A stretch of 64,000 nucleotides of DNA from Gammaproteobacteria bacterium (GCA_029883265.1 JAOUJM010000001.1:10511-74510), one strand, 5' to 3'; shown: positions 6,847 to 41,545, counted from the stretch's first letter. A program made the numbers and translations. The notes: a model not told the origin generated them from the letters alone.

Positions 6847-6930
6847 GTAAGCGTCCCAAACTCCGCACCTTCCCAGTTCGCTTAAGATCCGTTAGCCTGT
6901 TTCTGTGTAAATTACCGGCAGGAGCAAGCC

Positions 6931-7290: not shown

Positions 7291-7634
7291 ATCAAGAGAT
7301 TCAGATTTACTTCGCGATTAACCCGATCAACATGCTGAAAAGCTTTGACGGTTTAGCAGCCTTGGTGGTGGATGTGATTCAACAAAATCCCCTATCAGGG
7401 CATTTGTTTGTGTTTCGTAATCGAGCCGCTGATAAAATTAAACTACTGATCTGGGATCGCAATGGCTTTACCATCTACTATAAAAGACTCGAACGCGGTC
7501 GCTTTAAGTTTCCTGAGTTGGATGACTGCACTCATCTTTCGATCACTCGTCAAGAACTGGATTTATTGTTTGATGGTATTGACTTCACTCAACTCAAACG
7601 CCTACCCACACTTCACTATAAATCAGTGATTTGA
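7278..7634 (+). CDS. tnpB: IS66-family TnpB (orf2)
   Basis: 118 aa with the motifs IYFAINPINMLKSFDGL…LFVFRNRAADKIKLLIWDRNGF…YKRLE characteristic of IS66 Orf2. It overlaps the tnpA end. Confidence 0.8.
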   Translation: MLKLDQEIQIYFAINPINMLKSFDGLAALVVDVIQQNPLSGHLFVFRNRAADKIKLLIWDRNGFTIYYKRLERGRFKFPELDDCTHLSITRQELDLLFDGIDFTQLKRLPTLHYKSVI

Positions 7635-7646
7635 TCCGTCTGATAC

Positions 7647-9185
7647 TTGCATTACAATAGTGCCATGCAAGGACGCACGAAAACACATTATTCCTACTCT
7701 GAACTCAAAGCTTTAGTCGATGAACTTCAAAAAGAAGTGCAGCTGCTTCGAGAGAAAAATCGTTTGTTACTGCATCGTCAGTTTGCCGCGAAGTCCGAAC
7801 AGACTACCGATGATCAGTTGTCCTTGTTTGATGCGGATACTTCATCGTCCGAAGTAAATCAAAACAATGAAAAAAACAACAACATCGTCGTACTGGCACA
7901 TCATCGCAAGAAACGACAACGACTGACGTTTTCTGATGACCTACCCAAACGTAGAGTTGAGATTGATCTGGATGAACACGATAAGACCTGCGATTGTTGC
8001 GAAGCACCACTGACGCATATTGGTGAAGACATCACTCGAAAGATTGAATTTATCCCAGCGAAAGTCCAAGTCGTCGAATACGCTCGATTAAAATATGCGT
8101 GTAAATCCTGTGAAGACACCATTAAACGCCCACCCTTACCGAACTTTATCTTACCAAAAAGTTTCGCCACACCAAGTTTACTCGCGCATTTGATTGTGAG
8201 TAAGTTTGGTGATGGCTTACCTTTGTATCGCATTCAACAACAACTGGCCCGTCAAGGTGTGCATTTACCGCGTTCCACCATGAGTACACTGTTACTCAAA
8301 GCCGCTGATTTACTCGATCCGGTTTATAAATTAATGATCAAGCAAGTATTGTCCGGCCCGCGTATTTGGACAGATGACACGATTCTTCCCAAACAAAACG
8401 ATGATCCGAGTCGAAACAAAATCATTCAATCCAGATTATGGGTGTATATTGGTGGACCTCTTAAAGATCCACCCTTGGTCATTTTCGATTACACCAGCAC
8501 TCGATCCTCGAAATGGCCGAAGGACTTATTGTCTGATTACCAAGGCTACAAACATGCCGATGGTTATGGCGGCTATAAATCGTTGCATGATACAGGTAAA
8601 ATTCACTATGTGGCGTGCTGGAGTCATGCGCGGCGAAAGTTTTTTGAGGCCTCATTACTCACCGAGCAAACCGGTAAAGCCAAGACCATGATTAAATACA
8701 TCAAACTGCTTTATAAGATTGAAACCGCTTGTGAAAAATATGGTAATAAAAAACGTAAACGGTTTCGACGAAGATATGCCACACCCATACTCAACACCAT
8801 CAAAGCCTATGCCGATCAACATGCGCCGCATATTCCACCCAAAACCAGTTTGGGTAAAGCGTTTACTTATTTGCTTAATCAATGGCATGGACTGGTTCGT
8901 TATCTCGATGCCGGTCACCTAACCATTGACAATAACCTGGCCGAACGACACATCCGACCCATTGCCGTGGTTCGAAAAAGTTTTCTGTTTGTCGGCTCGG
9001 ATCGCGGTGGTCGTGCGGCTGCGATTTATTATTCGGTGTTGGGGTCGTGTAAAAGTTTGAGGGTGAATCCTTATAAGTATTTGATGGATTTGTTTGAGCG
9101 GTTGCCAAATTTTGAATCAAAATTGGAGTTAAGCAATTTGATGCTAACTCGCTGGACTAAACAAGATGACGAACGAAAAATCTGA
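7647..9185 (+). CDS. tnpC: IS66-family transposase TnpC (orf3)
   Basis: 512 aa. It has an N-terminal leucine-zipper-like coiled coil, a CxxC…CxxC zinc-finger region (KTCDCC…CKSCED) and a DDE-type core. It is about 88% identical to the 19554..21044 copy. Confidence 0.85.
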   Translation: MHYNSAMQGRTKTHYSYSELKALVDELQKEVQLLREKNRLLLHRQFAAKSEQTTDDQLSLFDADTSSSEVNQNNEKNNNIVVLAHHRKKRQRLTFSDDLPKRRVEIDLDEHDKTCDCCEAPLTHIGEDITRKIEFIPAKVQVVEYARLKYACKSCEDTIKRPPLPNFILPKSFATPSLLAHLIVSKFGDGLPLYRIQQQLARQGVHLPRSTMSTLLLKAADLLDPVYKLMIKQVLSGPRIWTDDTILPKQNDDPSRNKIIQSRLWVYIGGPLKDPPLVIFDYTSTRSSKWPKDLLSDYQGYKHADGYGGYKSLHDTGKIHYVACWSHARRKFFEASLLTEQTGKAKTMIKYIKLLYKIETACEKYGNKKRKRFRRRYATPILNTIKAYADQHAPHIPPKTSLGKAFTYLLNQWHGLVRYLDAGHLTIDNNLAERHIRPIAVVRKSFLFVGSDRGGRAAAIYYSVLGSCKSLRVNPYKYLMDLFERLPNFESKLELSNLMLTRWTKQDDERKI

Positions 9186-9193
9186 ACCGGCTT

Positions 9194-9748
9194 TCAATTA
9201 CTAAGTCGAAGCACTTTACCCGAGGATACTTTGAAATGACTAGTAACGATTTTTTGTTCGCCGTTTATGATATAAATATAGTTTGCAATGATAGTTTTAT
9301 TTTCTATTTTTATGTCCCTAAGATTGCTAACTATGGCGTCACCATCTAGCAACCTAAAGCTGCTATCACGAAATTGAAAAATTAGTAAATTATAAAGATT
9401 TCCGCCACTATTGTAATACACGAGCAATTCTGGAGTTGGTTCTTCATCCATGTTCTCTTGTGCAAAATCAACGGAATGACCCTCTAGCATATAAATTATC
9501 TTAGGATAGCCATTTTCAATTGTTAACAAATAAGTTTCGTTTGTGGGTAGGCAATCATCAGCATCATCAATGTAGAATATTTTTAAATCACGGATTTCCA
9601 TGCTCTTCTTTGAATGAATATGAAACTCCATTTTGTTTGAGCCAGACTCAAATTTGTTGCACTTTTCCACAGATGAAAAACAATTAGTAATTCCGGCAAT
9701 ACTTATTAAAATCACGTATAAAGCATGTCTTATATGAGCCATTTTCAC
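9194..9748 (-). CDS. Putative immunity protein for toxin H, with N-terminal signal peptide (periplasmic)
   Basis: 184 aa. Hydrophobic leader MKMAHIRHALYVILISIAGITNCFSS. Its start overlaps the toxin H stop (9745..9748). Its stop lies 8 bp from the tnpC stop, in convergent orientation. Confidence 0.55.
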   Translation of the reverse strand: MKMAHIRHALYVILISIAGITNCFSSVEKCNKFESGSNKMEFHIHSKKSMEIRDLKIFYIDDADDCLPTNETYLLTIENGYPKIIYMLEGHSVDFAQENMDEEPTPELLVYYNSGGNLYNLLIFQFRDSSFRLLDGDAIVSNLRDIKIENKTIIANYIYIINGEQKIVTSHFKVSSGKVLRLSN

Positions 9749-10509
9749 GGTTTACCTTGTGTCTTAAGATAGTTTTCAATAAATTGCACGGTGGTTCCAT
9801 GCCCCTTAGTCGTATTGTAATAGACTTTCCAGTCCTGCGCATAAGAGTGAGCACCAGGTGATTCAATGAAAGATAGTTGACTTCTATATCTCCAATATTG
9901 TAAACCAGCCATCGCTGCAGCATATTTATCATTATTTCGGAGTTCAGAATGCAAATCACCACCATTTGTGAAGCTCATTACTAACTTTGCTATTTTGGGT
10001 TTATATGCAAGGACATTTGCCCATATATCATCATGCGTATTCGGTTCCATTTGAAACAAACCTTTTGCAGGGCCATTACTAAATTGATCCCTGTATTTAA
10101 GCGAACTTTCTTGCGCAGCAGTACCAACTAGAACTTCTTGGAATTCGGTTCGGTATTTTGAAAAAGTTTTGTCTATTTTCCCGAGCTCATCAATGGCAGG
10201 TTTAATCGAGTTAGTAAGCAAAGCATCTGCTTTCTTCTTGAAATGAAGATTATTATTAAACGTATATTTCTCAAGTTCATCCAAGTCAATTTTATACCCT
10301 GATGAATCGAACAAGGACCCCTCCCCAAACGTTCCATCTTGAGGCGCTAAGCTAAGAAGATACTTCGCTACTTCAGTATTGTCACCCCAATCAACGTCGG
10401 GCAACTCGTTTTTATCAAGAACCGCGTTTTGGCCCACACTGGCCAGCATGTTTGAACCAACTGGGTTATTTTTCCTAGGGGCAGAGTTTTGGACGCTTAC
10501 TGGAACTAC
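9745..10509 (-). CDS. Toxin H: lytic transglycosylase (SLT/lysozyme-like) C-terminal domain entered through the IS66 IRR (…LFVVP-VSVQNSAP-RKNNPVGSNMLASVGQ…)
   Basis: Track ORF 9745..10449 extends in frame through 10478-10500, which is translated as VSVQNSAP, to GTA GTT CCA at 10509-10501. The motif LVGTAAQESSLKYRDQFSNGPAKGLFQMEP matches the SLT catalytic signature (E-S … GLMQ-like). Confidence 0.6.
   Translation of the reverse strand, partial: VVPVSVQNSAPRKNNPVGSNMLASVGQNAVLDKNELPDVDWGDNTEVAKYLLSLAPQDGTFGEGSLFDSSGYKIDLDELEKYTFNNNLHFKKKADALLTNSIKPAIDELGKIDKTFSKYRTEFQEVLVGTAAQESSLKYRDQFSNGPAKGLFQMEPNTHDDIWANVLAYKPKIAKLVMSFTNGGDLHSELRNNDKYAAAMAGLQYWRYRSQLSFIESPGAHSYAQDWKVYYNTTKGHGTTVQFIENYLKTQGKP
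10478..10500 (+). repeat. IS66-type right inverted-repeat-like sequence (GGGGCAGAGTTTTGGACGCTTAC), copy 1
   Basis: 20/23 complementary to the IRL at 6847. Identical to 22817-22839. Confidence 0.6.
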
Positions 10510-17096: not shown

Positions 17097-17563
17097 CAGT
17101 CTACCCTAATATTATCTGTAGAGTTGAATATGCTGCGCTGCCCAGCACTATTCAAGATCAAACTTTGACTTTGTTGCTGCCTAAATATATCCAATACCAT
17201 ACGATCCCCGGGCCAGCCTGATGCATCTAGTTTAATGTCTGTCGTTCCGGGATGAGTATGACCAGACCACTTATAGCCTTTATCAGCCAAACCTTGTAAT
17301 TCAGATTTGGTTAATGGAACACCTCCAGCATTCCCTCTAAACACTAGGCGTTGACTACCATTAGTAAACAAAGCAAACTCATCACCTGTCTTTGCCGTAA
17401 GCGCTGCCAGATCAGTCACGCTTATTTGCTTCTTATGAAGAGTTGTACTTGATAATGTATCTGGTAATTGACCCAAAACCCGTTGTTGACGCTTTGACAA
17501 ATCGCCAAAGCCCCAAGCTATTTCGCTAGGAGAACTAGCTGAAATCGTCTTGTTTGGAACTAC
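17096..17563 (-). CDS. Orphan toxin C-terminal domain O (begins VVPNKTISASSPSEIAWGFGDLSKRQQRVLGQLPDT...)
   Basis: Track ORF 17096..17500 extends in frame to the junction at 17563. The TAG stop of immunity P overlaps the junction (GTAG). Confidence 0.55.
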   Translation of the reverse strand, partial: VVPNKTISASSPSEIAWGFGDLSKRQQRVLGQLPDTLSSTTLHKKQISVTDLAALTAKTGDEFALFTNGSQRLVFRGNAGGVPLTKSELQGLADKGYKWSGHTHPGTTDIKLDASGWPGDRMVLDIFRQQQSQSLILNSAGQRSIFNSTDNIRVD

Positions 17564-17853
17564 ATACTAAATCCGCTTTTCCAATCACTTTTAGTAGTAG
17601 GATCCGACCTCATTTCTTCTAAGAAGAACTCACACGCTGAGCTTTCATCCTCAAAACACTCTTTGCCAGTCTGCAATCCTCTCTCACTATAATAAACACA
17701 CCACCGGCCATTTTCACAACGCAAGCACAACGCCTCGTCCTTTTGTTCCTCCTCCAATGAGTAAGAGCTAGGATTAAATTTCTCCTCACTCAACTTTCTT
17801 TGAAGATCATCTTTATTCATGCAATATCCCTCATCATTTTGTAACGCGCTCAA
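17560..17853 (-). CDS. Putative immunity protein for toxin P
   Basis: 97-aa Cys-rich ORF that overlaps the toxin P 3' end. Confidence 0.45.
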   Translation of the reverse strand: MSALQNDEGYCMNKDDLQRKLSEEKFNPSSYSLEEEQKDEALCLRCENGRWCVYYSERGLQTGKECFEDESSACEFFLEEMRSDPTTKSDWKSGFSM

Positions 17854-18732
17854 GATATTGGTTTGCTGGATTCAAGAGCTCCTTTACTGATTTTGGCAAC
17901 TCGTATTGGGTACCATATCCAGGCATATCAAAAGCAGGTGCAGCTGGGCCAATGCGTGTATCCGGAATTTCTTGGAGAACGCGATACACATTCAAGTTAC
18001 TCACATCTGTGCCGGGACGAAGGGATAATGTTTCTGGAGTTGTTCCTAAGGGGCTTGCGAATGTACCGCGTTCATTCCCGAGACGGCCTATTAGCTGTCC
18101 AGGTTGCAATGAGCCAATCTCATCAGCACCATAAACAAAACCTTTATTCTTCGGCCAATCCCAGAACACATTTTCTGCACCATACTTGCTGGTCAAATAT
18201 TCATTCCATTGAGCGCCTGAAACTGCTCCAGTCTTGTTTGGAACACGATCACCGCCTTTATATTTTAATATACCGCCAGCAATAAAACCATATGTTAAAC
18301 CACCCAATAGCTCTGGATTCTCCCTGTTCTGCCACAAGTTCCTCAGACTTTGGACCTTTCTATCTGAAAATTCGGTACTAGTAGGAAAACCCAGCTTATC
18401 TAACTTAAAGAAACTATTAAAATTTAAAGAGAGGTCATTAAACTCTTCCCAGATATTTTTTCCTATATCTAGCAAAACCTCTAAAGTCTCATTTGTCAAT
18501 CTGTCACCAAGATCTTTATGAGCATTTAGGGTTCCTTTACTGAATCTCAATGCGTAATCACCCACATCTCCGTTTTGTTTCTGCTGGTTACTCCGGCCCA
18601 AAACAACCCCATTAATCTGATCAAGTTGCTGCATTGCCTCTTCTAAATTTTGTTGACTCTCAGAAACCTCTCCAACCCCCTCCTCCTTACTATGTCCCGC
18701 CAACGTCAATGGTAAATCCACTTCCTGGCCAT
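17834..18732 (-). CDS. Module P: displaced original C-terminus of the giant rhs gene (EVDLPLTLAGHSKEEG…KYKGGDR-VPNKT-GAVSGAQWNEY…LERVTK)
   Basis: Track ORF 17834..18817. The first 28 codons are IS66-encoded (18817-18733). Immediately outside the IS left end the frame continues from the TSD (HGQ) into rhs-like sequence. That sequence joins seamlessly to …TYNGYGQ of the giant ORF once the IS66 element and one TSD copy are removed. Confidence 0.65.
18725..18732 (+). repeat. 8-bp target-site duplication CTGGCCAT (left copy) of IS66 element 2
   Basis: Identical octamer at 22840-22847, directly outside the other end. IS66-family elements make 8-bp TSDs. Confidence 0.85.
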
Positions 18733-18755
18733 GTAAGCGTCCTAAACTCCGCACC
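18733..18755 (+). repeat. IS66 left terminal inverted repeat (copy 2)
   Basis: GTAAGCGTCCTAAACTCCGCACC. The canonical IS66-family end starts GTAAGCG. Confidence 0.75.
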
Positions 18756-18816
18756 TTCCCAGTCAGTTTAAGATCCGTTAGCCTGCTGCTGTGTAAATTA
18801 CCAACAGGAGCAGGCA

Positions 18817-19173
18817 ATGAACGATCTCACTCAACCGTCCATCAAAAACATTCGCACGGATAAACGCAGCAAAGGCCCTGAGTATTGGCAGGCGCATATG
18901 GATGCGTTAAAGCAAAGTGGTATGACTAAAACCGGTTATTGCATGCATCACGGACTTTCTACGGCGACGTTTTTTAAGTGGGAGAAGAAACTGGCCAAGG
19001 CCTCGGCTTTGTTTGTTCCGGCTAAGTTGGAGACAGTGCCGGTGTATCCAGCCTCATCCAATGATCTGATTCGCATTGATCTGCCCAATGGTTGTGTGAT
19101 TTCCTTGCCAGTGTCGTGTTCACCTACTGAGGGTTTACGTTGGATCGAGACCTTGATGCGTGCTTCATGCTGA
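18817..19173 (+). CDS. tnpA: IS66-family TnpA (orf1)
   Basis: 118 aa. Paralogue of 6931..7290. Confidence 0.7.
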   Translation: MNDLTQPSIKNIRTDKRSKGPEYWQAHMDALKQSGMTKTGYCMHHGLSTATFFKWEKKLAKASALFVPAKLETVPVYPASSNDLIRIDLPNGCVISLPVSCSPTEGLRWIETLMRASC

Positions 19174-19523
19174 AGCTAGATCGTGAGATTCAGATTTACT
19201 TTGCGATTAATCCGATCAATATGTTAAAAAGCTTTGATGGGTTATCCGCTTTAGTGGTGGATGTGATCGAACAAAACCCCCTATCGGGGCATTTGTTTGT
19301 GTTTCGTAATCGAGCCACTGATAAGATTAAATTGCTGATCTGGGATCGCAATGGTTTTACCATTTATTACAAAAGACTCGAACGTGGTCGCTTTAAGTTT
19401 CCTGAGCTAGATGACTGCACCCACTTGTCTATCACCCGCCAAGAGTTGGATTTGTTATTTGACGGGATTGATTTTACTAAGCTCAAACGATTACCCGCAC
19501 TGCATTACACATCCGTGACTTGA
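19140..19523 (+). CDS. tnpB: IS66-family TnpB (orf2); true start probably the internal MLKLDREIQIY at ~19167
   Basis: Same motifs as 7278..7634. Confidence 0.8.
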   Translation: MDRDLDACFMLKLDREIQIYFAINPINMLKSFDGLSALVVDVIEQNPLSGHLFVFRNRATDKIKLLIWDRNGFTIYYKRLERGRFKFPELDDCTHLSITRQELDLLFDGIDFTKLKRLPALHYTSVT

Positions 19524-19553
19524 TTCTGGATTAACCTGCATTACAATAGCGCC

Positions 19554-21044
19554 ATGCAGGCAAAGTCTCAAACACGCTATTCTTATTCTGAACTCGAAGC
19601 ACTTGTGGTTGAACTTCAAAAAGAAGTGAACCTGCTTCGAGAGAAAAACCGGTTGTTGTTGCATCGACAGTTTGCTGCTAAATCCGAACAGATGACGGAC
19701 GATCAGTTGTCTTTATTTAATGATGATTCGGTAACAGCAGAATCAACTCCTACAAAAATGAAGAACGATAACATCGTCGTACTCGCCTATCATCGCAAAA
19801 AACGGCAACGACTGACGTTTTCTGATGACCTACCTAAACGTAGAGTTGAGATTGATCTGGATGAACACGACAAGACCTGTGATTGTTGCAATACTCAACT
19901 CACGCAAATCGGTGAAGACATTACTCGAAAGATTGAATTTATCCCAGCGAAAGTCCAAGTCGTCGAATACGCTCGATTAAAATATGCGTGTAAATCCTGT
20001 GAAGACACCATTAAACGCCCACCCTTACCGAACTTTATCTTACCAAAAAGTTTCGCCACACCAAGTTTACTCGCGCATTTGATTGTGAGTAAGTTTGGTG
20101 ATGGCTTACCGTTGTATCGCATTCAACAACAACTAGCGCGACAAGGCGTGCATTTACCGCGTTCGACTATGAGCACCTTATTACTCAAAGCAGCTGATTT
20201 GCTCGTACCAATTTATAAATTAATGATCAAGCAAGTATTGTCCGGCCCGCGTATTTGGACGGATGACACGATTCTACCCAAACAAAATGATGATCCAAAT
20301 CGAAAGAAGATTATTCAATCTCGATTATGGGTATATATCGGAGGTCCACTCAAAGATCCACCCTTGGTGATTTTCGATTACACCAGCAATCGATCTTCGA
20401 AATGGCCGAAGGACTTATTAGCCCATTACCAAGGTTATAAGCATGCTGACGGGTATGGTGGATATAAATCGTTGCATGTAACCGGTAGCATTCACTATGT
20501 GGCTTGCTGGAGTCACGCACGGCGAAAGTTTTTTGAGGCTTCACAACTGACCGAACAAAGCGGTAAAGCCAAGACCATGATCAAATACATCAAACAGCTT
20601 TATCGGATTGAAACGGCTTGTGAGAAGTATGGCAACAAAAAACGTAAACGGTTTCGACGAAGATATGCCACACCCATACTCAACACCATTAAAGCCTATG
20701 CCGAGCAACATGCGCCGCTTATTCCACCCAAAACCAGTTTGGGTAAAGCGTTTACCTATTTACTCAATCAATGGCATGGCTTAGTTCGTTATCTCGATGC
20801 CGGTCACCTAACCATCGACAATAACCTGGCAGAACAACACATCCGACCCATCGCCGTTGGAAGAAAAAGTTTTTTGTTTGTCGGCTCCGATCGCGGCGGT
20901 CGTGCGGCTGCGATTTATTATTCGCTGTTGGCGTCGTGTAACAGTTTGGGGGTGAATCCTTATGCGTATTTGGTGGCGGTGTTTGAGCGTTTGCCGGAGT
21001 GTCTAAGTGACCAGGATTTTCAGAAGCTGATGCTTAAACAATAA
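19554..21044 (+). CDS. tnpC: IS66-family transposase TnpC (orf3)
   Basis: 496 aa. Coiled-coil N-terminus, zinc-finger region and DDE core. About 88% identical to copy 1 but diverges at the extreme C-terminus. Confidence 0.85.
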   Translation: MQAKSQTRYSYSELEALVVELQKEVNLLREKNRLLLHRQFAAKSEQMTDDQLSLFNDDSVTAESTPTKMKNDNIVVLAYHRKKRQRLTFSDDLPKRRVEIDLDEHDKTCDCCNTQLTQIGEDITRKIEFIPAKVQVVEYARLKYACKSCEDTIKRPPLPNFILPKSFATPSLLAHLIVSKFGDGLPLYRIQQQLARQGVHLPRSTMSTLLLKAADLLVPIYKLMIKQVLSGPRIWTDDTILPKQNDDPNRKKIIQSRLWVYIGGPLKDPPLVIFDYTSNRSSKWPKDLLAHYQGYKHADGYGGYKSLHVTGSIHYVACWSHARRKFFEASQLTEQSGKAKTMIKYIKQLYRIETACEKYGNKKRKRFRRRYATPILNTIKAYAEQHAPLIPPKTSLGKAFTYLLNQWHGLVRYLDAGHLTIDNNLAEQHIRPIAVGRKSFLFVGSDRGGRAAAIYYSLLASCNSLGVNPYAYLVAVFERLPECLSDQDFQKLMLKQ

Positions 21045-21094
21045 GTGAAAATGTAAACCATTATTGTTCACCTATTACCACACGGCCAAACATC

Positions 21095-21823
21095 TCATTT
21101 ACGAGGTTCAGGTATCTCCACACCTCGCTGCTTTAACGCGGCTAAGAGTTTTTCATACCAAATCTGTTGACTGTCGGGAACATTTACCATTACAGCAATT
21201 TGTGCCAATCTCTCTAATTCTACAGTAGTGCCCTTTTCTAAATAAAAAAGCCCTTTATCATAACGTCCCCAGACGGCAACAACGTGATCGGCTATAGTTC
21301 CGCCTTGGTTGTCAACACCATTTAAATCGGCACCATTATCCAGTAAAAAATCAATGCGTTTCCAATTGCGTCCATTAGCTATGCGTTGTAATAATGGCAT
21401 ACCATTCCAGCAAGTGATGTTGGGGTCACCGCCATGGCGTAACAATATTTTTAGATAGTCGATGTCGTCGGCTTGTGCAGCAAGTTCCATAGCTGAAAAT
21501 TCAATATCGGTTTTGTAATTCGGATTCGCACCTAGCTGTAATAGTTTTTCCAAACCTTTTTTGGCTTTCGCAGCAATCAGCCACATTAAGGGTGAGAGGC
21601 CTTCGGATCCGACCGCATTCACATTGGCACCTGCTTTTACTAATCGATCGACTTCGGCAAAATCCTCGTCAATGGCGGCATAGATCAATTGTGAATCCAA
21701 CGGCTTTGAAAACGATTGTTTCGCGGTTAAGCCACCCAGTTTTAATTCACCACAGGCGCTACACATGAAACTCATGCCGAATAAAAGAAATAAGTATTTT
21801 CGGAGTTTTATATTTTGAATCAT
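21095..21823 (-). CDS. Ankyrin-repeat lipoprotein, the cognate immunity protein for the lipase-like toxin domain (IS66 cargo)
   Basis: 242 aa with a signal/lipobox-like N-terminus (LFGMSFMCSACG). It has at least four ankyrin repeats (GANVNAVGSEGLSPLMWL…, GANPNYK…, GGDPNIT…, GADLNGV…). An RBS AAGGTGA precedes the ATG. It lies immediately 3' of the toxin domain. Confidence 0.7.
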   Translation of the reverse strand: MIQNIKLRKYLFLLFGMSFMCSACGELKLGGLTAKQSFSKPLDSQLIYAAIDEDFAEVDRLVKAGANVNAVGSEGLSPLMWLIAAKAKKGLEKLLQLGANPNYKTDIEFSAMELAAQADDIDYLKILLRHGGDPNITCWNGMPLLQRIANGRNWKRIDFLLDNGADLNGVDNQGGTIADHVVAVWGRYDKGLFYLEKGTTVELERLAQIAVMVNVPDSQQIWYEKLLAALKQRGVEIPEPRK

Positions 21824-21846
21824 GCTTCACCTTAATTGCAGATCAA

Positions 21847-24800
21847 TTATTTAAACGCGTTGATAAAATATTGCATATCGTGCAAATCCACAGGGTCCAA
21901 ATAACTTTGCCATGGCAAGGGCTGTTTCGCTTCATTTACGGCCGGTACGGCAATACGAGTGCCTGCGGCTTCTGGCATTTGTCCGGGGCCAAAACGATGC
22001 CAGCCAATGTCCCTACCATAAGATACATCATTAAGTGCCATAACAGCCGCGAGTAAATTTTTTGGGACTGTACCCCATTGGTTGAGGACGGAGTCCACCA
22101 CTGGACTAGCCTGGAGTGTGCTCAATATTTCACCCGGCGTATAGAATGCGTAAACATTTTTCTTTAAGTGATTCCGATCCATTCCATAGCGCTCAATTGT
22201 ACCATCACTGAGTCCTGCCGCGTTAAAGGTAACCGCACTGGATTTCAACCTGCCAGCTTGTGCCGAAGCAATGCCGCCACCGAGGGAGTGACCGGTAAAG
22301 GTTAGTGGTGATGAGCCTAACGCTATTTGAAGATCAATTGCAAGATTGATCCCAAATTCATATTGGGTCGAATTGAAATCGGATCCTTGAGCAATACTTG
22401 CTACTGCATCTTTAACCGCTTCATGCCGGCCCAATTTCGTATCCGTTCCTCGATTGGCGAATATAAATTCGCTTGTGCGATAATTAAAATAGAGTGCGCC
22501 TTGGTAGCCACTCTTCTTATCTACAAAATTTTCAGGTTTCATATCCAGGACATCAATAAAATCCCTACCCATGCGGTAAATATCCTCAGTGACTTTCTTT
22601 GGTTCCTTTCCGGTGTATTCTTGATAAACATCGTCAGATACCATAGCGTTTTCATACCAATCAAGGCTTCCACTAAAGTCCAGTCTGATTGGAGCGGCAC
22701 TAGCAAGCTGCGAGTTATATAGCGTTCCGTTTTCATCAACTAGCTGTCCGTTCTTGAATGTGAGTATCGGTTTGGTTTCAACGGCATCGGATGATTGTCT
22801 ATAAGGAATTTTGCCTGGGGCAGAGTTTTGGACGCTTACCTGGCCATACCCATTATACGTTTTACCGCCATTACGAATAAGATTGCGACCTGGCTGGATT
22901 CCCCCAAATAGCGGCAACTCACCCAAAGCAGATTTCCAAGCATCCTCACCAGACACGCCTTTGCGAATAGACTTGGTGTAGTGTTTCTTAATCGCCTGTC
23001 TTTGTCGGTGGTCGTTTATTTTCAACTCATCAAGTTTGTTATCAAACTTTTTGGTCGACTGCTCAGCACTAATATATCCCGACGCAGCACTACTTAGTGC
23101 CTCAACAGCAACCGTCCGCCAGTCCGGCCGGTAGTCTTTCAGAGTCATGGAGTTAACGGCTATGCGGCCAACTCCAGTTAACGCACCACGTATCGCATCG
23201 CCTGCAACACCCGCGAAACCCCATCCATCAACTTTCCCAACGTTGCTTGGTAATGAAGATGTGACTCCACCCACTAATGCGCCAACCGCTACATTCGCGA
23301 ACAGATTTCCTGCTTGGCTATTGTATTTTTTACGCTGCTCAGTTGACTCCATGGCCATCGATAAGCCAGTCGATATAAGTGCTCGTCCCGCACCTTGTAG
23401 TGCACCCTTAACAACCCCTCCTCCTGTCTGATTCAATCCAGGTATTTGTGATATGATCGCGGCGATTGTCATTGATTTAACAATTTCTTCCTCGTCAATT
23501 TCATCGATGTAACCAACATTCTTCATGTATTTCTGTATGGCATACGAGGTCATTCCGGCAGCAATAATCGCCCCTTGCGGACCAAACACTATAAAAGCAG
23601 CAATAGATATGACAACAGAAGCAACATTCATCCAAAATATTTCAGACTTCGAGGGTTGATTCCTTGCAGGCATGCTTGGGTCCGTACTTCCAATTATCTC
23701 TCCCGGACTATAAGGTTTGAAGGTATCGGCATTGTTATGAATGTTTGTGACAACATTCGGAATGATTATGGATATTCCAGGTGTTAAATCAATATTGGTG
23801 ATATTGTTTGCGTTTGCAATCACATACCAAAGACTAGCATCTCCCCATACTTTACCTGCAATCGTTTCCAAAGTGTCACCTTGCACAACGAGGTATTCAC
23901 TGGCTGTATTCGCAGGATAGTTAGCACTAATGGCTTGATAATTTTGATCAAAGTCTGCTGAAATAACTCGATTCTTCCCTCTTTTTTCGTTATCTGCAAT
24001 CTCCTTGTTTGATAGTCGCGACTGGGCAAGTATTTGTGTATAGTCGGTTTCACCGGCACCTCGGTTGGATACTTCACCAATACCCCGTCCATTAAGATAG
24101 AAATAGCGGTTTACATCGTAATTTGTATTATCGATTTCATTACGCATAATGATTCGGCCGTCGGCATCAACCGTAAACTCAACTCGGCGCTCATATTTGG
24201 TGCCATGTAGTGGTGAGTTGGAATCATCCATTCTCATCAAGTGTCCATTTTGGTCATAATAAAGGTGAGAATACCCGTCAACAAAACCACGTGAATTTAC
24301 ATCCGACCTACCAACACTCTTTTTTGCAGAATCCCAATAGCTATAGAAATAGGAATTCCTGAAATTCTTTTGTTCCTCAATGCTCTTTACTTGATATGAG
24401 ACATTCTTTTCAGCTAGATCTAAACGATCTATTTCACGATAGGTGTAATCGTTATGAATTGTTGACTGCTCTTGCAAATATAGAAATTGATCCTCAGAAT
24501 TTTCCACTCTTTTACGATACTCAATACGAGAGATACGACTATCCAGATCATAGCTATAGTCGTATTGTTGTACAGACTGGGGTGGAATTGTGGTAACAAC
24601 AGTTTCTATATCTGGGTCATATAAATGAGAGGAGCTCGTTCGACCTAGCGCATCTAGCAAGCGCCGAGACACTAAATTTTTGTCTTCAACATTATCGACT
24701 ATTTTTCCGTGTTCAACAGTTTCTAAAATACCATTTTTTGTATATCCATATCGTTCGATCATAGTCGTATTCGCGCGAATATAGTTAACGCCAATTCGCT

Positions 24801-27800
24801 CACCTGCAAGATTATACAGGACTTCATATCCTTTATTTTCTGCAATTTCGACATTGCCAGACCCACCGACATCGAGTCTACCTTGTGTAATTCTAAATCG
24901 GTTCATTGAGTCGTAGTCATACCAATGTTCCTGGACGAAATCTCCAGTCGCTTCTCTATAGTCTGCTCCTCGATGAGCGTTAAGATCAATACCACCGTGG
25001 TACTTGGATACCACATGAATGCGATTTCCCATTTCGTCGTAATCATATGTAATATTGAAAAACGGATCGTTAATCTCGACAACACGATTGTAGTCATCAT
25101 ATATCGCTATCGTATATTGATAATCTTTTCCAATATCGGCATTTGCTCCCTCTTCGTAAACCGCTTCATAGGTTTTGTTACCATTGTTGTCGTAGCCATA
25201 CCGACTAACCAATCTAACACCATCATTTCCACCGTTAAAACCATAATCTACTTTTGCCTTTAATGACCCGTTATCATTGTAGTCAAACTCAATCACTTGA
25301 TCATAATCAGAATGATTAGTCATAAAATTGTTCAGACTATAGCGATATAAATCCATGTAGTCATAAGTAAAACCATGTAGCTGTGTATCAATATTATTCC
25401 ATGCGGCATCAGTTGCAATAATTGAAGCACCCGGATCCGTATTACCGATTTGATAGCGCAACTGCCCCCTTGCATCATAAAAATAGCGATAGCTACGGTT
25501 TCCGAGATCACGGTGGTAAACGAGCTTATTGAAATAGTCATATTGGTCTGTGATGGCTCGTGTTTCATAGTGCGGAATAATAATTTGAAGTCCAGCTTTC
25601 AAATCCGCATCAGTAATGTTATTTGCTTGACCTATCGAATTTGACATGTCTTCAACATTTAGTAAGCTATAGGCTATGGACGCCAAGGTATCGCCAGTTT
25701 GGACAATATAATTTAATTTTTCCCGACGTCCATAAAGGTAGACGGTTAATGTGTTTCCGACCACCAGTGTTTCGTCAACGACACCATTATCACTTCCAAT
25801 CCGGTTCGCTACCTCAGAGACTCTCAACAACTGTCTTGCAATAGATTCTAGCGTGTCACCGGACCTGACAATATACAAATTGCCAGAATAGGTTGTTTTG
25901 CTGAACCCCCCTTCCTGACCATTAAAGGTGAGATAGTTATAATCGTAACGAGTAACTTTATCACCATAGCTGACATGTTTTACCACCCGTCCTAATGCAT
26001 CGAAATAAGTCCGCTCTCGTCCACCGCCTTGGTCATGGAGAATTTCGTCATGGGAATTTGTATCCGGGTCAGTTAGATCGAGTGATGTATCAACTAAATT
26101 GATATGTGCAATTCGGTTACCATTTTCATCATATTCGTACTTTTCAACATTGTCGTATATATTGCTAGTTTCTTCAGTAATACCACCAAAAGAGCCTAAT
26201 ACATATTTTATAACATTATGTTTTTCTTTAGTAACATAGGTAATTTGGTTATTGTGATCAAACTGATATTTTGTCACGCGATCTGAGTCAGCTGTTAGCT
26301 TCTGACGTTTTTCAATTACATTACCAAAGCCGTCATAGACATAGGTCATTCCGCCCCCATCAGGGTTGAACTCCTGCTTGAGGCCATTTTGGTCATAAGA
26401 GAATCTTTTTAAATTGTTGCGTGCATCTGTAATTCCAGTGACATTACCCAGCTTGTCATAGTAATAAATCGCATTGGCATCCTGAATAGTTTGAAGCCGA
26501 CTGTAATAACTATTTCGAATTGGATCTTTTCGCGGATTACTTTTTCTAATTAGATTACCCATCTTGTCATATTCAAAGTAGGTATAGATATCTTTGCCAT
26601 CTTTTTCTTGGACAATTTCTCCAAAAGCGTTGTAGTAGTGAGATTTGTGAATTTGTACAAACTGGTCTGGATCGCTGTTATCACTAGAATTCACGCGACG
26701 ATGTGAGTAAAGTGACGCCTCACCTGTTAAATCGATGGACAATTGTCCCTGCAATACTTTGGCATTGGGATCATTTGGTTTATAGGTATAATTAATAACA
26801 TAGTCACCGGAATAGCTTCTTGGAACTGAATATCTTTGTCTCGTGCTGTCCGTTATAGTACGGAAAATTATTTCTTTGTATGTTTCACCGCCAGATTGTC
26901 TAATTGTTGCTGACAGTGTTCCTTGTGCTGGATCAACGTTTTCAAGATATACATCCCTGATATAATACCAAGATAAGCTAGAATCCATAAATGGAAATGA
27001 AGTAACGCGAGCCTCAATCGAATTATCACCATCATCCGAGCTAAAAGCGTTGCCATCTAAGCGCAAATGACTGCCTGGTTCTACTGATGGGTTATTAGAT
27101 AAATTCAGAATTACTTTCCCTGTATGAGGCGTTAAATCTGGGTTTGTTGCTTCATTGTCATAATGATATTCATATTTCAACTCAAACTGTCCTTCGAGTC
27201 CAGCATCGCCAAAATTCCAGGTTTGCCAGGAAGGATTAAAACCACTCGGTGTATCAAAATGTTCAACAGTAACCCACTCAGTTTCACCCACCCGTCTAAT
27301 CTCTACCGTTAGGGTGCCCAGAGACTTTGGTACATTCTTTAATATAATATCTCGACCATAGTACTGGTCGACAGCAACGTAATTATTCTGGCCGTCCACG
27401 TCACGAAAGCTTCCTGATACCGACGCAATGGTATAGCCATTCTTCTTGATTGTGGCACTATATGTCCTGGAACCAATATCATGTCCTTTCGGCGTACGAT
27501 AATGCGCGTCCTTACCGCCACTCCCATATGTGATAATTTTTTCTTCTTCATTATTCGGATTAAACTCTAGCACCAGACTACCTTCACCGTAGGAATTCTT
27601 GATTGAATCCACATTCGGATCTACGGCATCCCACCAAGTCTCCGCCCAGTCTTTACCTACAGCGTCATGAACACGTAGATGTAAACCACCATAGGGGGTA
27701 ACTTCAATATCAACTTTTCTATCACTTAATGTCTGGTATAGAGTTTGTGAAATCGACTGAGTGTGCGATGGTTCGTAAATATGAACAAGTTCGTTTCTTT

Positions 27801-30800
27801 CATTGTAAACGCTTGAACGATAAACAGAAGGAGCATTGTTATCAGTGATTGATGGCAGGATCTCTTTTGTCGCATTTCCGTTACGATCATAAGCATATTC
27901 CTTGACCACACCATCGCTGTTAGTTTTAATCAGGTTGCCGTTGCTGTCATATTCAAAAAACACTTGCCTGGCTTTGTTAGCTTCTGGACGTGATAGTTGA
28001 AGTGTATTTCTTTCGTATGCGCCCTGAAACGCTGCTTTTTCATAGCCATTGTATTCAGTGTATTTGTTCTCAAAGTAAGCATAGACAGAAGAATTTTTCT
28101 CTGTCCTTTTTCCACTGACTATGTTCCTATTTAGTCTATCATAAATGTATTCCGCGATATCTGTAAAAAGGTTTCCATCTGCATCATGTCTATTTAGGCT
28201 TTGGGTTCTAACATTACCAACAGCGTCGTAAGTATACTTGTTATTGGCACCATATTCTTCACTAACATTGGCATTGAAGTTTGCATCCCAATCCTCCAAC
28301 AACCTCCCATCAACTCCGTATGAGAATTTTTGTATTTGATCAAGGTTCGCAAGAGAGGGAGCACCATTAAGAGGAATATTTCTAGACTCACTGTCTTTCT
28401 CAGATGCAATATTTCGCGCCTCGATCACATTCCCATGTGCATCATATATATTTTTTGTAGATTTAAGACCTGATTTTTTTGTTAAGAGGCGACCTAAAAC
28501 ATCGAAACTATAATTTGTAGTATTTGACTCCGCGTCTACTATAGTGGTTATATTTCCCATTACGTCATAGACATATGCAGTAACACTATCTTCAAGCACT
28601 CCAGATTGCATGTTACCGTTACTAAAAGAGTATGTTTGAAAATTTTCCAAAGAATCCGTTTTCAGCCTATTTAATTTGTCGAATGAATAATTTTTAATTC
28701 TCGAATCAGAATATTGATTATCTCTTAAATCAACACTTTCTATCACAAAATTGTAACCACCATTCGTTGCAACGTTCACATTAGACAAATTAATCGAACC
28801 GCTTTTTATTACTCGATCGTTATCTTGCAGAATATATGATACCGTTGCTCTTCCACTAATGTTACCGACATCAAAAAATGCTTCGCCATTTTCATTCACC
28901 ATAACATCTACTGGTGTAGCAGTCGTTTCACCTTCTCGCAGCAGGCTCGCGCTCCAGACTCCACCAACATAATCAACGTCACTAATCTTCAAACGATTGA
29001 CATCAAATGCTGAGTATCCGGAATGCCAGCCTTGTGATCCAAGCATAAGATTCGTATCCACTCTTGCAATTTCAAAAGAGTCTGAATTGCTTATAAGTGT
29101 GATAACAAACTCTTTGATTTCACCAGTATTATATGAACGAAGAGGTATTGTCCCTTTGGTAAGGATTGTCGTAGTAGGAAAAGTTGTGTGATAAGTGCCA
29201 TCCGCTCTCGCAGCTCGAATAACGTAATAGTCGCCTTGTTTTAAGGTGGGAAGATTTATTTTTACGTACATCACAGAAGGCATCCCATCGCCTACCTGCC
29301 AAAAGTAAGGATAAAAGTAACCTTCCTCCAAATTGACTTGAACGATTCGATCCTCGTAACCGTTTGTTTCAAACTTCTCAAGCACTTCTAATAAAGAAGT
29401 ATTTTCATCCACCACATCTCTTAAACGTATCGAAGCCTTCTCTTCTCTAATCGCATTATTGAATGCATCGTAATTCCACTGGGTTGCATATCTTAGTGCA
29501 TCAACTGTGACTCTTTTATTACCTTTTTTATCATAATAATGAAAAATAGAATTTTCGTTTCCATCTACTTCTCTTACTAAGCGGCCTTTATGGTCATAGT
29601 ATTTCCGAATCACCGTTTCGCTGACATAATTTTCTTCCTTAATAAATTGATCATCACCAGGATCACCAATGGGCACCATTCTATCTTTTTCATAACGATG
29701 CTCTGCCGGAAGTTTTGTCTCCACAATTTGATTAAATGCATCATAACGATGTGTTAGTTGCATGTAGACATTTGAGACTGTAAATTTGTAAATCGAGTCT
29801 GCGAAGGTTGCAGTATCACGATATTTTCGCTCTTCAATAATATTACTCACAGAATCATAGGCAAACGTTTTCAAGAACCCTTCCGCATCGTGGGTGGCTA
29901 TCCGTCGTCCTAAATTATCATAATAATGCTGAGTTATGTTTAGATTTGCATCAATTTCACGGACCAAATTGCCAACAACATTGTATTTTTGTTCGATTGT
30001 GGTCGTTATACCCACGCTATCACCGGCACTCAATTTTATTCTATGGTTTTCCGTTTTAACCAGTAAGTTTAATTTGTTATAGGTATAGCTTCGACTTCGC
30101 TCTTCCTCCATGCCCGCTGCTTCTCGTGAAATGCGCCGGTTTCCGAATGCATCGTAACTGAACTCATTTGTTTGTCTTTCAAAACCTGTAGTTTCAAAAT
30201 CGATAAAAGGCAGCAAGAATCGCCCATCCATGCCTACCTCAATGGATTCACGATCGCTGATTCCACCTTTGTTAGCAATCGGCAAATACTCACTCGTCAA
30301 ATTTCCTTTGCGATCATAATTGTAGTGGTATTGATAACCAAGCGAGCGTTGGTAGTCTGGGTCTAGAACATTTGTTATAGGTTGATGACCTAGTAATTTT
30401 CCAATCTGATTTCCAAACGCATCATAATCATATTTTTCTTTTACCGATTCTGCATTGGTTAATTCAGTTTTGCGGTTCAGTTGATCGTAGTTCAGTAAGG
30501 TCTTTTGATCTTTATCAGTATTAATCTCCAAAAAGGTTTCGAGAATCTGACTTTCCGTGGTGTTGTCATCAACAGTATGAGCGGCCGCAATTGCGGTTGC
30601 ATATTGCATCGTACCCGTTAGATTACCCATTCCATCATAGGCTTTGGTTGTCACATAACGCTCAGGATCAACCACCAAAGTATTGCGATCAAGCTTATCG
30701 TAGTAAAAATAACTTATTGTGTCATAGGGTTCAGTAATTTTAGTAATATTACCAAACGCATCATAATCGGTTTTCTTCAATTCAAAAATATTGACGGTGC

Positions 30801-33800
30801 TACCAGCGCCTTCCTTAATCACTGATGCCGTCTTACGATTTAGCTGATCAAATGTCTGATACGTTGAATAGTAGTTTAGTAATGTATCTTTTTGATCCTG
30901 TGTTAACTGGATATAACTTAAGTTTGTAGTTGCCGTTAAACCGAGAATTAATTTACGTTCATTATCAGCCCAATCAGAATCAGTTTCTGTAAGCTCAATA
31001 CCGCGTGGATCAATAATCTTTGTCTGATTACCAAACGCGTCATAACCGAACTCACTTGAATAGGCCATTTGAGTTTGTGGATGTGCGGTATCAAGATTAG
31101 CTACAACACTGGCAGCCTCGAGATAAACTGTACGGCGTGTTAACAGACCACGCTGACTAAATTCTTGCGTGGTGCGTTGCAATTCATCACCACTGATATT
31201 GAGTCGCTTAACAATCGACGTTGTATTACCAAATGCATCGTAGCCATACTCCGTTACCAAGTCTCCATTCTCATCAGTTGAATGCGTCGTATACGACACA
31301 TTCTCAAGTATCTCTTGATATAATCGCCCGGCATCATCGTATACATAACGGGTACTGCGATCACCACTTGTTGTATCACTATTTCTATACAATAGGTTCG
31401 TACCACTAACTAGTAGTTGAATATCTCCCTCATTTCGAACATCAAATCGTTGTGTTGCCAAGGTGGCGACACCACTTTCTGGAAAACCTTCCGCTGTTGT
31501 ATCGTTAACAACCTGTAGTTGGTTAGCGTATTGAGTTACCCGAGATAGAAGATCACCTGTATATTCTCGTCCAGTGACATAACCCTCTGCATCGACACTG
31601 AAACTCACTCTACCTGCAGCGTCGTACTGTTGAAAACTAACACGGTCTTTACCACTCGTCGCCGTAACAAGTGGCGTTGTTTCAGTGACATCCACCACTT
31701 GTCTGTTCAGAGTATTAATACGCGTTTCTAAGTAGGTGTTCCACTCAGCGGCTGTAGGAGTAGAGTCTTGATAGGAATTAATAGTGAGTGCCTGATAGAA
31801 ACGCGAAGCAACAATTGCCTGTCCCAATGCATCGTAGCTTGTCTGATTAACATACCCCAAGGCGTCTATCGAGTAAATCTTGCGTCCGGCATTATCATAA
31901 AAATAATGATTAATCTGATCAGTAGACGAATTACCCGCTAGGTTTCCTCGAATAGTCGCCTCTTTATAATCCGCAAATGTAGTTTCTTTTGAGGCATAAC
32001 GCATGCTAAGAATAACTTGGCCACTAGCGTCATAACGTTTTTCATTGACGTAGCCCATGGCATCCACGCTATAACGCAAACGGTTTAGCTTGTCGTAAGC
32101 AAAGTGATCGCCCTGATCATTTGCAATAACATCGGGACGTTTCTGGAGAATTGTTTGCGCGAGTAATTCAGTGTTAGTGCTATTTATCGTAGCAAGATCG
32201 GTGGTAGATACTGAATTAGCCAGCCTAGATTGACGAATCACATTACCATTGTCGTCATACTCGTACACAGTATAGTTGCCCACTGCATTTACCGTTACAG
32301 TCAGGCGACCATCGTCATCAAAAACTGAATAATCAACGATATCTTTTGCAAGGTCCGCTGATGCCGAGACTAAACTCAGAATGTCGGCTTCCGTTGAATG
32401 ATCATCAAGAGTAGTTGTGGATATGGGCAAGGCATACTGAATTGTCTTAACCTTGTCCCCTCTGTCGTTATACACCGACTCAACCACTACTGCTAGCTGA
32501 CCTGTTGGAATAGGATCCAATTCCATGTATTCAAAATCAAGAACGTCAGCATTCTTGATGGAATAACGTAACCGATTAACATCATCATAAACATATCTCA
32601 TGGAGTGTGAGGTATCTTCCGCGCTCAAATCGGTAGCGAAAGCAACTTCTGAGGTTTCACTAAATGCACCAAGGGCCGGGGTAAATGGTAGAACTGTAGC
32701 AACACTTAACTCTAAACCATTACGCAATAGAACTAACTCATATGTAAAGCCGGATCGACCTCGCCTGTAACGCCCAAAATCAGAGTCAGCTGGAGAATCA
32801 TAAACCGTAGTTCCATTCTCTTTTAACAGAATCCGGTCGGTTGCTAAAGAAGTTACATTTGACCACATCACATAGTAACTTGAGGTTAGCGTTTGATCAT
32901 CAAAAGCATAATTCAATGTTAACGAGCCACTCAATCCGCTAACATCTACTCGTCTGTAACCCTCCACCTTACGCACCATATTATCCGCAGCATCATAATA
33001 ATATTTAGTAGTAATATTTAACCCACCCGGATCAACAATCGTATCTGTGCGTCGACCTAAGTGATCGTAAATGTATTGTGTTTCCCTGGCTTGTGTACTA
33101 TTGGCGCCTTCGGTAACCGTTAATTGACGACCTTCTGCATCATACGTATATTCGGTCCGCAGATTTAAACCACCATTGACGGCATCAACAACGACGGCTA
33201 ATACATTACCCGCACGATCATATTCGGTATCCGTATGTACACCGTTGGCATCAATGGTTGTAACTTTGCGACCCAGACCATCAAAGACATACTGGGTTTG
33301 AATATTCAGTCCAGTCTCATTGTCACCCGTAGTGTGAATCGTCATGGGATCAACGGTACGGGTCATCACCCGATTGGCGGCATCATATTCAAACTTGGAA
33401 TAGACACCATTTTTATCCACGGTGTGGGTTAATCTTCCCGCCTTGTCATACTCACTAGTTATTGTGTTATTGAGCATGTCAACCACTTTAACCAGCTTGC
33501 CATTGGTATCATAATGATACTCTGTACCATCATTTGAATTTGCTGCCGACTGATTGCCGTCAATGATTTTAATCGTTTGACCATTGCGATCCGTAATGGT
33601 CTGTGTCTGAATCAATTCAGGCGTCGTCACCGTCAAGGTATGCGTCGCATCATCATACGCATAAGTGGTTACATTCAAAAATGCATCGGTCATGGTCAAC
33701 ACTCGACCAAAGGCATCATAAGTTTGTGAACGTGATACGTCTAATGCATTCCTTGTTTGTACCTGTCGCCCCAGACGATCATATCCAAACTGAGTGATGT

Positions 33801-41514: not shown

Positions 41515-41545
41515 GTTGAGCTGAGCTAAAAAACAAGTCGATCAT
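41186..41545 (-). pseudogene. Truncated copy of the TPR protein C-terminus (110 aa nearly identical to the end of 47101..48189)
   Basis: ORF MIDLFFSSAQPTNLMPNDTANLVALAWAQIASNQIPVAK… matches …NLMPNDTANLVALAWAQIASNQISVAK… of the full gene. The N-terminal 9 aa come from unrelated flanking DNA. Confidence 0.7.

Follow-up and report, generated by a model that had tools for sequence, protein, structure and literature searches.

Insertion sequences (IS) of the IS66 family can act as transporter IS (tIS66), which carry passenger genes along with their own transposition genes; described examples are ISPa75-fosZ, ISPsp18, ISPa120, ISPa128 and ISPsy43 (PMC12888890). According to the 2026 study of ISPa75-fosZ, 7 of the 25 Pseudomonas IS66 entries in ISfinder carry passengers downstream of the DDE transposase gene, the inverted repeats (IRs) start GTAAGCGTCC (the ISPsko1 IR, for comparison, is GTAAGCGTCCGGCGAACTCACCTT), the target-site duplications (TSDs) are 8 nt long, and the authors suggest that passengers are captured via ends of different origin (PMC12888890). 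Displacement of C-terminal tips and arrays of orphan tips have been described for Rhs toxins (Jackson et al. 2009, PMC2935791; Poole et al. 2011, PMC3150448), and displacement has been modeled as recombination between homologous stretches of the core, by way of a circular intermediate that is hypothetical (PMC2935791). Here we analyze a 64,000-nt stretch of gammaproteobacterial DNA (GCA_029883265.1, JAOUJM010000001.1:10511-74510; hereafter, the window) where an IS66-family element, E2 (18733-22839), lies inside the 3' end of a giant RHS/YD-repeat toxin gene, whose reading frame runs through the IS end into a toxin tip carried by the element. The window also holds a second IS66 copy, E1 (6847-10500).

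Ends and gene content of E2

Both borders of E2 were read directly. The left border (18725-18755) is CTGGCCAT followed immediately by GTAAGCGTCCTAAACTCCGCACC, and the right border (22817-22847) is GGGGCAGAGTTTTGGACGCTTAC followed immediately by CTGGCCAT. The two arms (the left IR, IRL, versus the inverted right IR, IRR) agree at 20 of 23 positions, and both begin GTAAGCGTCC. A 17-nt IR core (≤3 mismatches) is found at five sites in the window, 6847(+), 10500(-), 18733(+), 22839(-) and 41985(-), versus 0.17 expected; four of these are the ends of E1 and E2, and the fifth is a degenerate remnant. CTGGCCAT is present in three copies in the window, two of which exactly abut the E2 IRs, and the chance of 8-bp identity at two fixed positions is ~1.5e-5. 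No second IR was found between tnpC and the right end of E2 (interior sequence agrees with the IRL at no more than 13/23), and GCTTAC occurs within 21000-22839 only at the true IRR. E2 is a unit of 4,107 bp with one pair of ends and a perfect 8-bp TSD. The whole unit transposed once into the 3' variable region of the giant RHS/YD toxin gene, making the 8-bp TSD, and we consider this structural part of our account close to certain.

A first-pass annotation had delimited the same unit, with an IS66-type left end at 18733 leading into tnpA, tnpB and tnpC (on which the IR and the family models agree), no IR after tnpC (21045-21094), an inverted partner ending at 22839, identical 8-bp duplications outside both ends, and a content of tnpABC, an ankyrin gene and a toxin tip, the last 330 codons of the toxin gene. 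All of these extents were confirmed. It had also called E1 and E2 unrelated after tnpC, and indeed the two are 86.7% identical over element positions 1-2260 (nearly to the end of tnpC) and thereafter share only the last 32-33 nt.

E2 belongs to the IS66 family by its tnpABC genes with a DDE transposase, its IRs of ~20-30 bp starting GTAAGCG and its 8-bp TSD. TnpA, TnpB and TnpC matched NF047593, NF033819 and NF033517, all above curated cut-offs (TnpC scored 384 bits on NF033517, where the cut-off is 180), and the Pfam families matched were PF05717, PF03050, PF13005, PF13007 and PF13817. A cargo-free IS66 does not fit, as no IR lies within 1.77 kb after tnpC and the lengths of E2 and E1 (4,107 and 3,654 bp) compare with ~2.4-2.7 kb for such elements. 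As in a tIS66, tnpC is followed by passengers (the ankyrin gene and the toxin tip) before the IRR is reached, and the TSD copies flank the unit as a whole. Each element has a single set of tnpABC, unlike a composite transposon, and no further tnp fragments were found in the window. E2 TnpC is 100% identical to a database entry named 'MAG: IS66 family transposase [Gammaproteobacteria bacterium]' and ≤41% identical to annotated plasmid IS66 transposases. Promoter and terminator scans and the GC profile were uninformative.

In-frame lipase fusion and displacement of the TNT tip

The interrupted gene is a giant open reading frame (ORF) encoding a large RHS/YD-repeat protein with a variable C-terminal toxin domain, i.e., a polymorphic toxin (RHS_repeat, E=2.7e-68 and 4.9e-47; Table 1). 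Public annotation of an identical protein lists TEN_YD-shell and a C-terminal 'Phospholipase-like' domain, PF26363 (precomputed). E2 encloses the last 330 codons of this ORF. Across the right border, the ORF reads …NGGKTYNGYGQ, then VSVQNSAP, then GKIPYRQSSDAVE…, and continues to the GHSLGG lipase motif (junction translation …GGKTYNGYGQVSVQNSAPGKIPYRQ…, with GKIPYRQ starting directly after VSVQNSAP; fusion stretch …GYGQVSVQNSAPGK…; junction peptide TYNGYGQVSVQNSAPGK), just as the first-pass annotation had translated it. Because the IRR is free of stops in this frame and the insertion has the right orientation and phase, the host ORF continues through VSVQNSAP and enters the lipase of the cargo. 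In the lipase frame, no ATG, GTG or TTG follows the IRR until codon 66, which has no Shine-Dalgarno-like sequence before it; a lipase with its full N-terminal part is thus only possible as a fusion. The ankyrin ORF begins 23 bp past the end of the lipase tip. By its position this protein may protect the producer from the lipase, the fusion is presumably made and delivered, and the E2 toxin may be active and expressed, as had been claimed at first.

PF26363 domains occur at the ends of RHS, PAAR and VgrG proteins. The closest homologue of the lipase tip is 33% identical over near full length (up to 48% over partial stretches), and none of the homologues retrieved in a protein search with the tip carries the IR peptide. 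Looked up as exact proteins, TnpB, the ankyrin protein and the putative E1 immunity protein were found at the same locus only. No IS-free homologue covering the junction was among the matches of two protein searches, in which VSVQNSAP itself was not searched directly.

To place the insertion within the host protein family, we considered the 350 residues before the junction (window 22840-23889, minus strand), which contain LysM, NVVTNIHNNADTFKPY, a transmembrane (TM) helix and Gly/Ala-rich repeats. This query has 1,901 representative homologues at E≤1e-3, many of them 4,000-7,000 aa long. In most of the best-scoring ones, similarity stops at about query residue 270-315 of 350 and is followed by a few hundred variable residues. 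E2 was inserted ~75 residues past the end of the family-conserved pre-toxin module. Since homology ends before the junction, the IS lies within the variable tip and upstream of the toxin domain. Several homologous giant proteins finish in GHSLGG lipase tips; a lipase is a natural ending for the host protein family. In 12 homologues inspected by eye, we noticed no IS end at the boundary of the tip. The pre-toxin module with its 'GLQEKFDW'-type repeats defines a large family, where the only Pfam match in our protein is LysM.

On the other side of E2, the old frame continues outside the IRL as GQEVDLPLTLAGHS… into a TNT domain. The TSD copy beside the IRL reads (H)GQ and then EVDLPLTLAGHSKEEG…, giving 296 codons with the TNT domain last. 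The former TNT tip and the small ORF that follows it were pushed just outside the IRL, where they head an array in which toxin-like ORFs alternate with small ORFs on the minus strand from ~17,500 to 1. Domains in this downstream array include TNT, an LHH nuclease (E=5e-9) and a nucleotidyltransferase (NTP-transferase), and the layout is that of a putative orphan tip/immunity array. The retained old immunity gene may protect the cell from kin that still bear the TNT tip. When the pre-toxin module and the TNT tip were rejoined into an uninterrupted protein and used as a query, the only matches were the IRL-TNT ORF itself and a TNT toxin that is unrelated. Together, these data demonstrate that a single 4.1-kb tIS66 transposition exchanged a TNT tip, in frame, for a lipase tip that brings its own immunity-like gene. 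In the distal part of the orphan array, a 152-nt direct repeat (97%) is present at 957-1108 and 1548-1699.

Table 1. Features of the toxin locus, of both IS66 elements and of a solo IR, in window coordinates.
Feature	Position	Strand	Basis or remark
TSD, left copy, CTGGCCAT	18725-18732	.	direct reading
TSD, right copy, CTGGCCAT	22840-22847	.	read as (Y)GQ in giant ORF
E2 IRL, GTAAGCGTCCTAAACTCCGCACC, 23 bp	18733-18755	+	direct reading, IR pattern scan, arm alignment
E2 IRR, GTAAGCGTCCAAAACTCTGCCCC on minus strand	22817-22839	-	translated VSVQNSAP inside giant ORF
E2 tnpA, IS66 accessory protein	18817-19173	+	NF047593
E2 tnpB	19140-19523	+	PF05717 / NF033819; ATG-initiated 118-aa form from 19167
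E2 tnpC, DDE transposase, all four IS66 domains	19554-21044	+	NF033517
E2 cargo gene 2, ankyrin-repeat, hydrophobic N-terminal signal-like segment, putative immunity	21095-21823	-	role from position directly downstream of toxin tip
E2 cargo gene 1, start-less phospholipase-like toxin tip, last ~322 giant-ORF codons	21847-22816	-	GHSLGG; PF26363 precomputed
Giant ORF, 6,384 codons: DUF6531, RHS/YD repeats, LysM, TM/Gly-rich pre-toxin module, lipase end	21847-41001	-	ORF and domain search
Displaced former tip, TNT NAD+-glycohydrolase	17834-18724	-	PF14021, E=1.9e-20; in frame with TSD (GQ, then EVDLPLTLAG…)
Small ORF, 97 codons, directly after TNT tip, putative cognate immunity	17560-17853	-	role from position alone
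E1, 3,654 bp, tnpABC and cargo	6847-10500	+	IR scan, alignment to E2
E1 IRL	6847-6869	+	one position different from E2 IRL
E1 tnpA	6931-7290	+	ORF
E1 tnpB	7278-7634	+	ORF
E1 tnpC	7665-9185	+	ORF
E1 cargo region	9194-10477	-	between tnpC and IRR
E1 cargo ORF 2, 184 aa, hydrophobic N-terminus, putative immunity	9194-9748	-	role from position
E1 cargo toxin-like ORF, 251-codon frame open from IRR first base, VSVQNSAPRKNN…	9745-10477	-	phrog_3108
E1 IRR	10478-10500	-	23/23 identical to E2 IRR
267-codon ORF leaving E1 IRL, interpreted as displaced tip, contains PVDFALTLAGSS	6041-6846	-	phase as TNT tip at E2
Solo IS66-type IR remnant, GTAACCGTGCAAAACTCCCCACC	41963-41985	-	19/23 to IRL; IRR orientation

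Sister modules and competing explanations

E1 has the same IRR and the same frame as E2 with a different toxin-like cargo, which the first-pass annotation had overlooked and which strengthens its interpretation. Read from the IRR, the frame is VSVQNSAPRKNNPVGSNMLASVG…; residues 92-247 of the cargo toxin match phrog_3108 (E=1.2e-27, function unknown), while Pfam, NCBIfam and PDB sequence searches gave no match. A single-sequence AlphaFold model was unusable (pLDDT 34.6). Its AAQESS…GLFQ motif may be SLT-like. Between E1 and E2, the ratio of nonsynonymous to synonymous substitution rates (dN/dS) is 0.18 for tnpA, 0.03 for tnpB and 0.16 for tnpC, at a dS of ~0.5-1.1; the IRR is nevertheless the same at all 23 positions. 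These low ratios indicate that tnpABC was kept under purifying selection while the cargo-bearing lineages diverged, and the IS lineage appears to be both active and old. The ORF that leaves the E1 IRL has the same phase at the IR end (…CGC TTA C, then xx) as the TNT tip has at the E2 IRL, as would be expected had an earlier insertion placed its IRR in the VSVQNSAP frame. The two displaced tips have a short motif in common (PVDFALTLAGSS in 6041-6846 and EVDLPLTLAGHS in 17834-18724); together with the toxin start KEPVDGLAMNLS on contig L004, it may mark the tip boundary of a toxin family.

In a related genome, a third module lies beside a CRISPR array on contig L004 and on L002, an ENA contig of the same locus. 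Its 22-nt IRR, GTAAGCGTCCAAAACTCTGCCC, equals the first 22 nt of the E1 and E2 IRR, and behind it, in the same frame as in E1 and E2, is a 290-codon toxin-like ORF (HNH-like; …EVDHIFP…N…), followed by a 239-codon putative immunity ORF whose match to SUKH/SMI1 is weak and does not reach the cut-off (E=0.008). At least three different toxin-like cargos thus follow the same IRR in one frame. No target-site consensus was found among the three IRR flanks (E2, E1 and the third module), which are unrelated. We considered whether L002/L004 represents a third complete cargo element, with the adjacent tnpABC (TnpC 66% identical), and rejected this because the L004 IRL (GTATACGTCCGGACAACTGCATC, 6076) belongs to another IS66 subtype and an IR-like end (GTAAGCATCCGGTTCTCAGC…, at 9947) parts the toxin module from the S26-peptidase-like cargo of that element. 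The IRR-toxin-immunity module on L004 is therefore a neighboring unit without tnp genes, and it is possibly an intermediate of the sort that gives rise to E1/E2-like elements. The adjoining element (L004 6076-9947) is a separate IS66-family cargo element. Its cargo is a gene resembling those of S26 signal peptidases together with two small ORFs for secreted products; the element cuts short an hsdM-like N6-DNA-methylase gene and abuts the toxin module, which is next to a type I-F CRISPR-Cas locus.

Another contig, L005, has an IRR identical to those of E1 and E2 and the same 23-nt flank and CRISPR I-F trailer as L004 (L005 1-150 versus L004 11659-11731). Past the first spacers, its identity with L002 is 99.7%; the trailer-proximal spacers differ between L005 and L004. 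Behind the IRR, L005 carries 77 nt that are 100% identical to the lipase cargo of the window, where L004 and L002 have the HNH-like module. This junction could mean that cargo was exchanged while the IRR stayed in place, or that a second insertion hit precisely an end that was already present. Logan contig L011 starts exactly at window 22839, the outer base of the IRR, as expected if the lipase-IRR has two alternative flanks in that sample too.

Two scans of species-representative genome contigs, one with a TnpC-derived peptide and one with the IR pattern, had no matches, and in metagenomes the IR pattern matched two contigs, both from one JGI sample. No such toxin cargo was seen with the TnpC relatives on L013-L015, which are 47-51% identical. 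On L014/L015 (4556-9512), an IS66 relative (TnpC 47%) lies directly downstream of a YD-shell gene and small ORFs, one of them RraB-like, with a second, inverted IS66 copy beyond; this is another IS66-Rhs association, in a different orientation.

We propose that E2 is a cargo-carrying tIS66 with its passenger region between tnpC and the IRR, the passengers being on the strand opposite tnpABC and the toxin 5' end abutting the IRR. Insertion in the right orientation and phase would graft the cargo lipase onto a host ORF via the 8 residues encoded by the IR. We regard this full mechanistic statement as probable. Since E1 and the third module carry different toxins behind an identical IRR and in the same frame, we infer a recurrent strategy of the IS lineage rather than an accident. 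A bolder idea is that this IS66 lineage is a dedicated toxin-tip shuttle in which the IRR would serve as a stop-free in-frame adaptor (VSVQNSAP) and the cassettes behind it may be exchangeable, integron-like, on protein C-termini. The same flank-IRR junction followed by an HNH-like module (L004, L002) or by the lipase (L005) is what prompts this idea, which we put forward as speculative.

Several observations weigh against the proposed mechanism. The E1 toxin is unfused, with a stop 5 codons upstream of the IRR, and E1 has no TSD (flanks CAGTGATA and TGGAACTA); this is most simply explained by later recombination between two different insertions, each of which supplied one of its ends. In the third module, a TAA interrupts the frame from the IRR to the toxin, and a different IS66-type element, bounded by IR-like ends of its own, is adjacent, so the module does not count as a clean and complete third element. 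The IRR can be read without a stop in two of its three frames, which makes read-through alone weak evidence of design. A scan of the giant protein for the PxxxxDPxGL cleavage motif found none in the vicinity of the tip (DPxG[LI] matches only at residues 2657 and 3331, far from the tip at 6055), and the junction is thus not a canonical Rhs core-tip boundary. The empty site (…NGYGQEVDLPLTLAG…; 40-mer AATGGGTATGGCCAGGAAGTGGATTTACCATTGACGTTGG) was not found in the databases searched, and the whole family is known from a single uncultured gammaproteobacterial lineage.

One alternative is that E2 knocked out the old tip by accident and hit a lucky frame, such that the chimera is unmade, undelivered or non-toxic and the cargo genes are relics or otherwise used (e.g., the immunity gene alone). 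The open frames, the unfused E1 toxin and the stop in the third module all favor it. Furthermore, IS insertions are common in rhs and other toxin loci, and mobile elements including IS66 are enriched near some polymorphic toxins. However, with 19 kb of gene to hit, random insertion would seldom reach the variable tip in both the right orientation and the right phase, the lipase is without a start codon of its own for 65 codons, and three different toxins lie in one frame directly behind the same IRR. The arrangement is also fixed in four samples, and lipase tips are natural endings in the host protein family. We therefore consider such an accident unlikely. Mis-assembly, where IS repeats would have caused a chimeric join and the rhs-IRR-lipase continuity would be unreal, is far less probable still. 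The window was taken from a metagenome-assembled genome, several related contigs end inside the IS, and the lipase-IRR end is joined to two different flanks, but mis-assembly does not yield an exact 8-bp TSD, and a single contig, L010 (4,361 nt), spans window 18598-22958 at 99.98% with both TSDs, IRs and flanks. The fusion is reproduced by L008, L009 and L011, and the IRL-TNT side by L006 and L012. Contigs bearing the ankyrin protein (ENA ERZ27296342, 27 kb; JGI 3300022223; ENA ERZ27296366; Logan SRR7132771) align to the window at 99.98-100%, such that ENA, JGI and Logan assemblies from four samples, made with three assemblers, concur.

A further alternative concerns the origin of E2, not the present event, as the unit transposed with a TSD regardless. 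E2 could be a one-off hybrid: an ordinary IS66 that had lost its own IRR would have combined its IRL with a solo IRR, left by an earlier insertion in front of a resident toxin/immunity pair, and moved once, the IS and its toxin cargo being otherwise unconnected. The fosZ study proposes the same route for ISPa75, with IRL and IRR of different origin; L004, where a complete IS66-type element (6076-9947) lies beside an immunity-toxin-IRR module without tnp genes, is a plausible intermediate; and a solo IR remnant is present at 41963-41985. Yet E1 and E2, at a dS of ~0.5-1.1 and with tnpABC under purifying selection, both have toxin cargo behind an identical IRR, which indicates that the architecture is old or recurrent. 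The hybrid route also re-uses an existing IRR-toxin junction and leaves unexplained why three toxins are joined to the IRR at the same nucleotide. We judge a one-off hybrid to be improbable, more so than a lucky insertion though less so than mis-assembly, and favor the graft of cargo tips through the IRR by an established tIS66 lineage.

Elsewhere in the window, the solo IR remnant lies ~960 bp upstream of the start of the giant ORF, with no transposase fragments nearby. A TPR-repeat gene is present as a full copy (47101-48189) and a partial copy (41186-41545), its 3' end being duplicated in a 300-nt direct repeat (99%; 41065-41364 and 46980-47279). The two repeats bracket 5.6 kb with three ORFs (42370-46089) and the IR remnant, which looks like an insertion with target duplication. 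From ~49,500 to 64,000 on the minus strand, a long co-directional flagellar-type cluster with rod, ring, export-apparatus and ATPase-like ORFs adjoins the toxin locus.

Comparison with known systems

E2 resembles described tIS66 in its tnpA-tnpB-tnpC order, in passengers that lie between the DDE gene and the IRR, in IRs that begin GTAAGCGTCC and in an 8-nt TSD that shows movement of the whole unit. Known tIS66 passengers are self-contained with their own promoter (e.g., resistance genes), whereas the passenger of E2 is a start-less toxin tip oriented for reading from outside through the IRR, plus an immunity gene. The first-pass annotation had presented the mechanism as one not known to have been described. 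This appears to stand for a toxin tip read through an IR but not for a cargo-bearing IS66 as such (tIS66, PMC12888890), and only the toxin-tip and translated-IR aspect seems new. Full-text searches of open-access papers and preprints, combining IS66 or transposons with polymorphic toxins, Rhs or toxin cassettes, found no account of a transposon-borne start-less toxin tip read through an IS terminal repeat, only reports of mobile elements (IS66 included) near some toxin genes. In-frame delivery of a toxin tip by transposition thus appears not to have been described previously, and it would be a rare bacterial case of a transposon terminal repeat with a coding role.

ISEcp1/IS1380-type mobilization and composite transposons likewise move neighboring genes as one unit with a TSD. 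Unlike in ISEcp1/IS1380, the right end of E2 is no weak surrogate, as it is identical in E1, E2 and L005 and shares its first 22 nt with L004/L002; and unlike a composite transposon, E2 has one tnpABC set only. Giant LysM/YD-repeat toxins (~1,900 representative proteins) share the TM/Gly-rich pre-toxin module and variable tips including lipases with the host protein but, in the 12 homologues read, differ in that no IS end was noticed at the tip boundary.

For polymorphic toxins such as Rhs, CdiA and their relatives, the sole explanation offered so far for tip acquisition and orphan arrays is homologous recombination via circular intermediates that are hypothetical (PMC2935791). The E2 locus shows a concrete self-mobilizing vehicle with an unambiguous footprint (the IR pair, the TSD and, in frame, the old tip that was displaced). 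If general, such transposition would allow homology-independent horizontal spread of toxin/immunity pairs between unrelated delivery proteins and would be one possible source of orphan arrays, and it would supply a search rule, namely ORFs that are open through IS ends into toxin domains. As in Rhs displacement, a new tip with its putative immunity gene replaced the previous tip at the E2 locus, and the old tip and its putative immunity gene were kept downstream, at the head of what would be a long orphan array. In contrast to Rhs displacement, an IS end and a TSD form the junctions at the E2 locus, just a 23-bp IRR and no core homology comes before the new tip, and the vehicle encodes a transposase.

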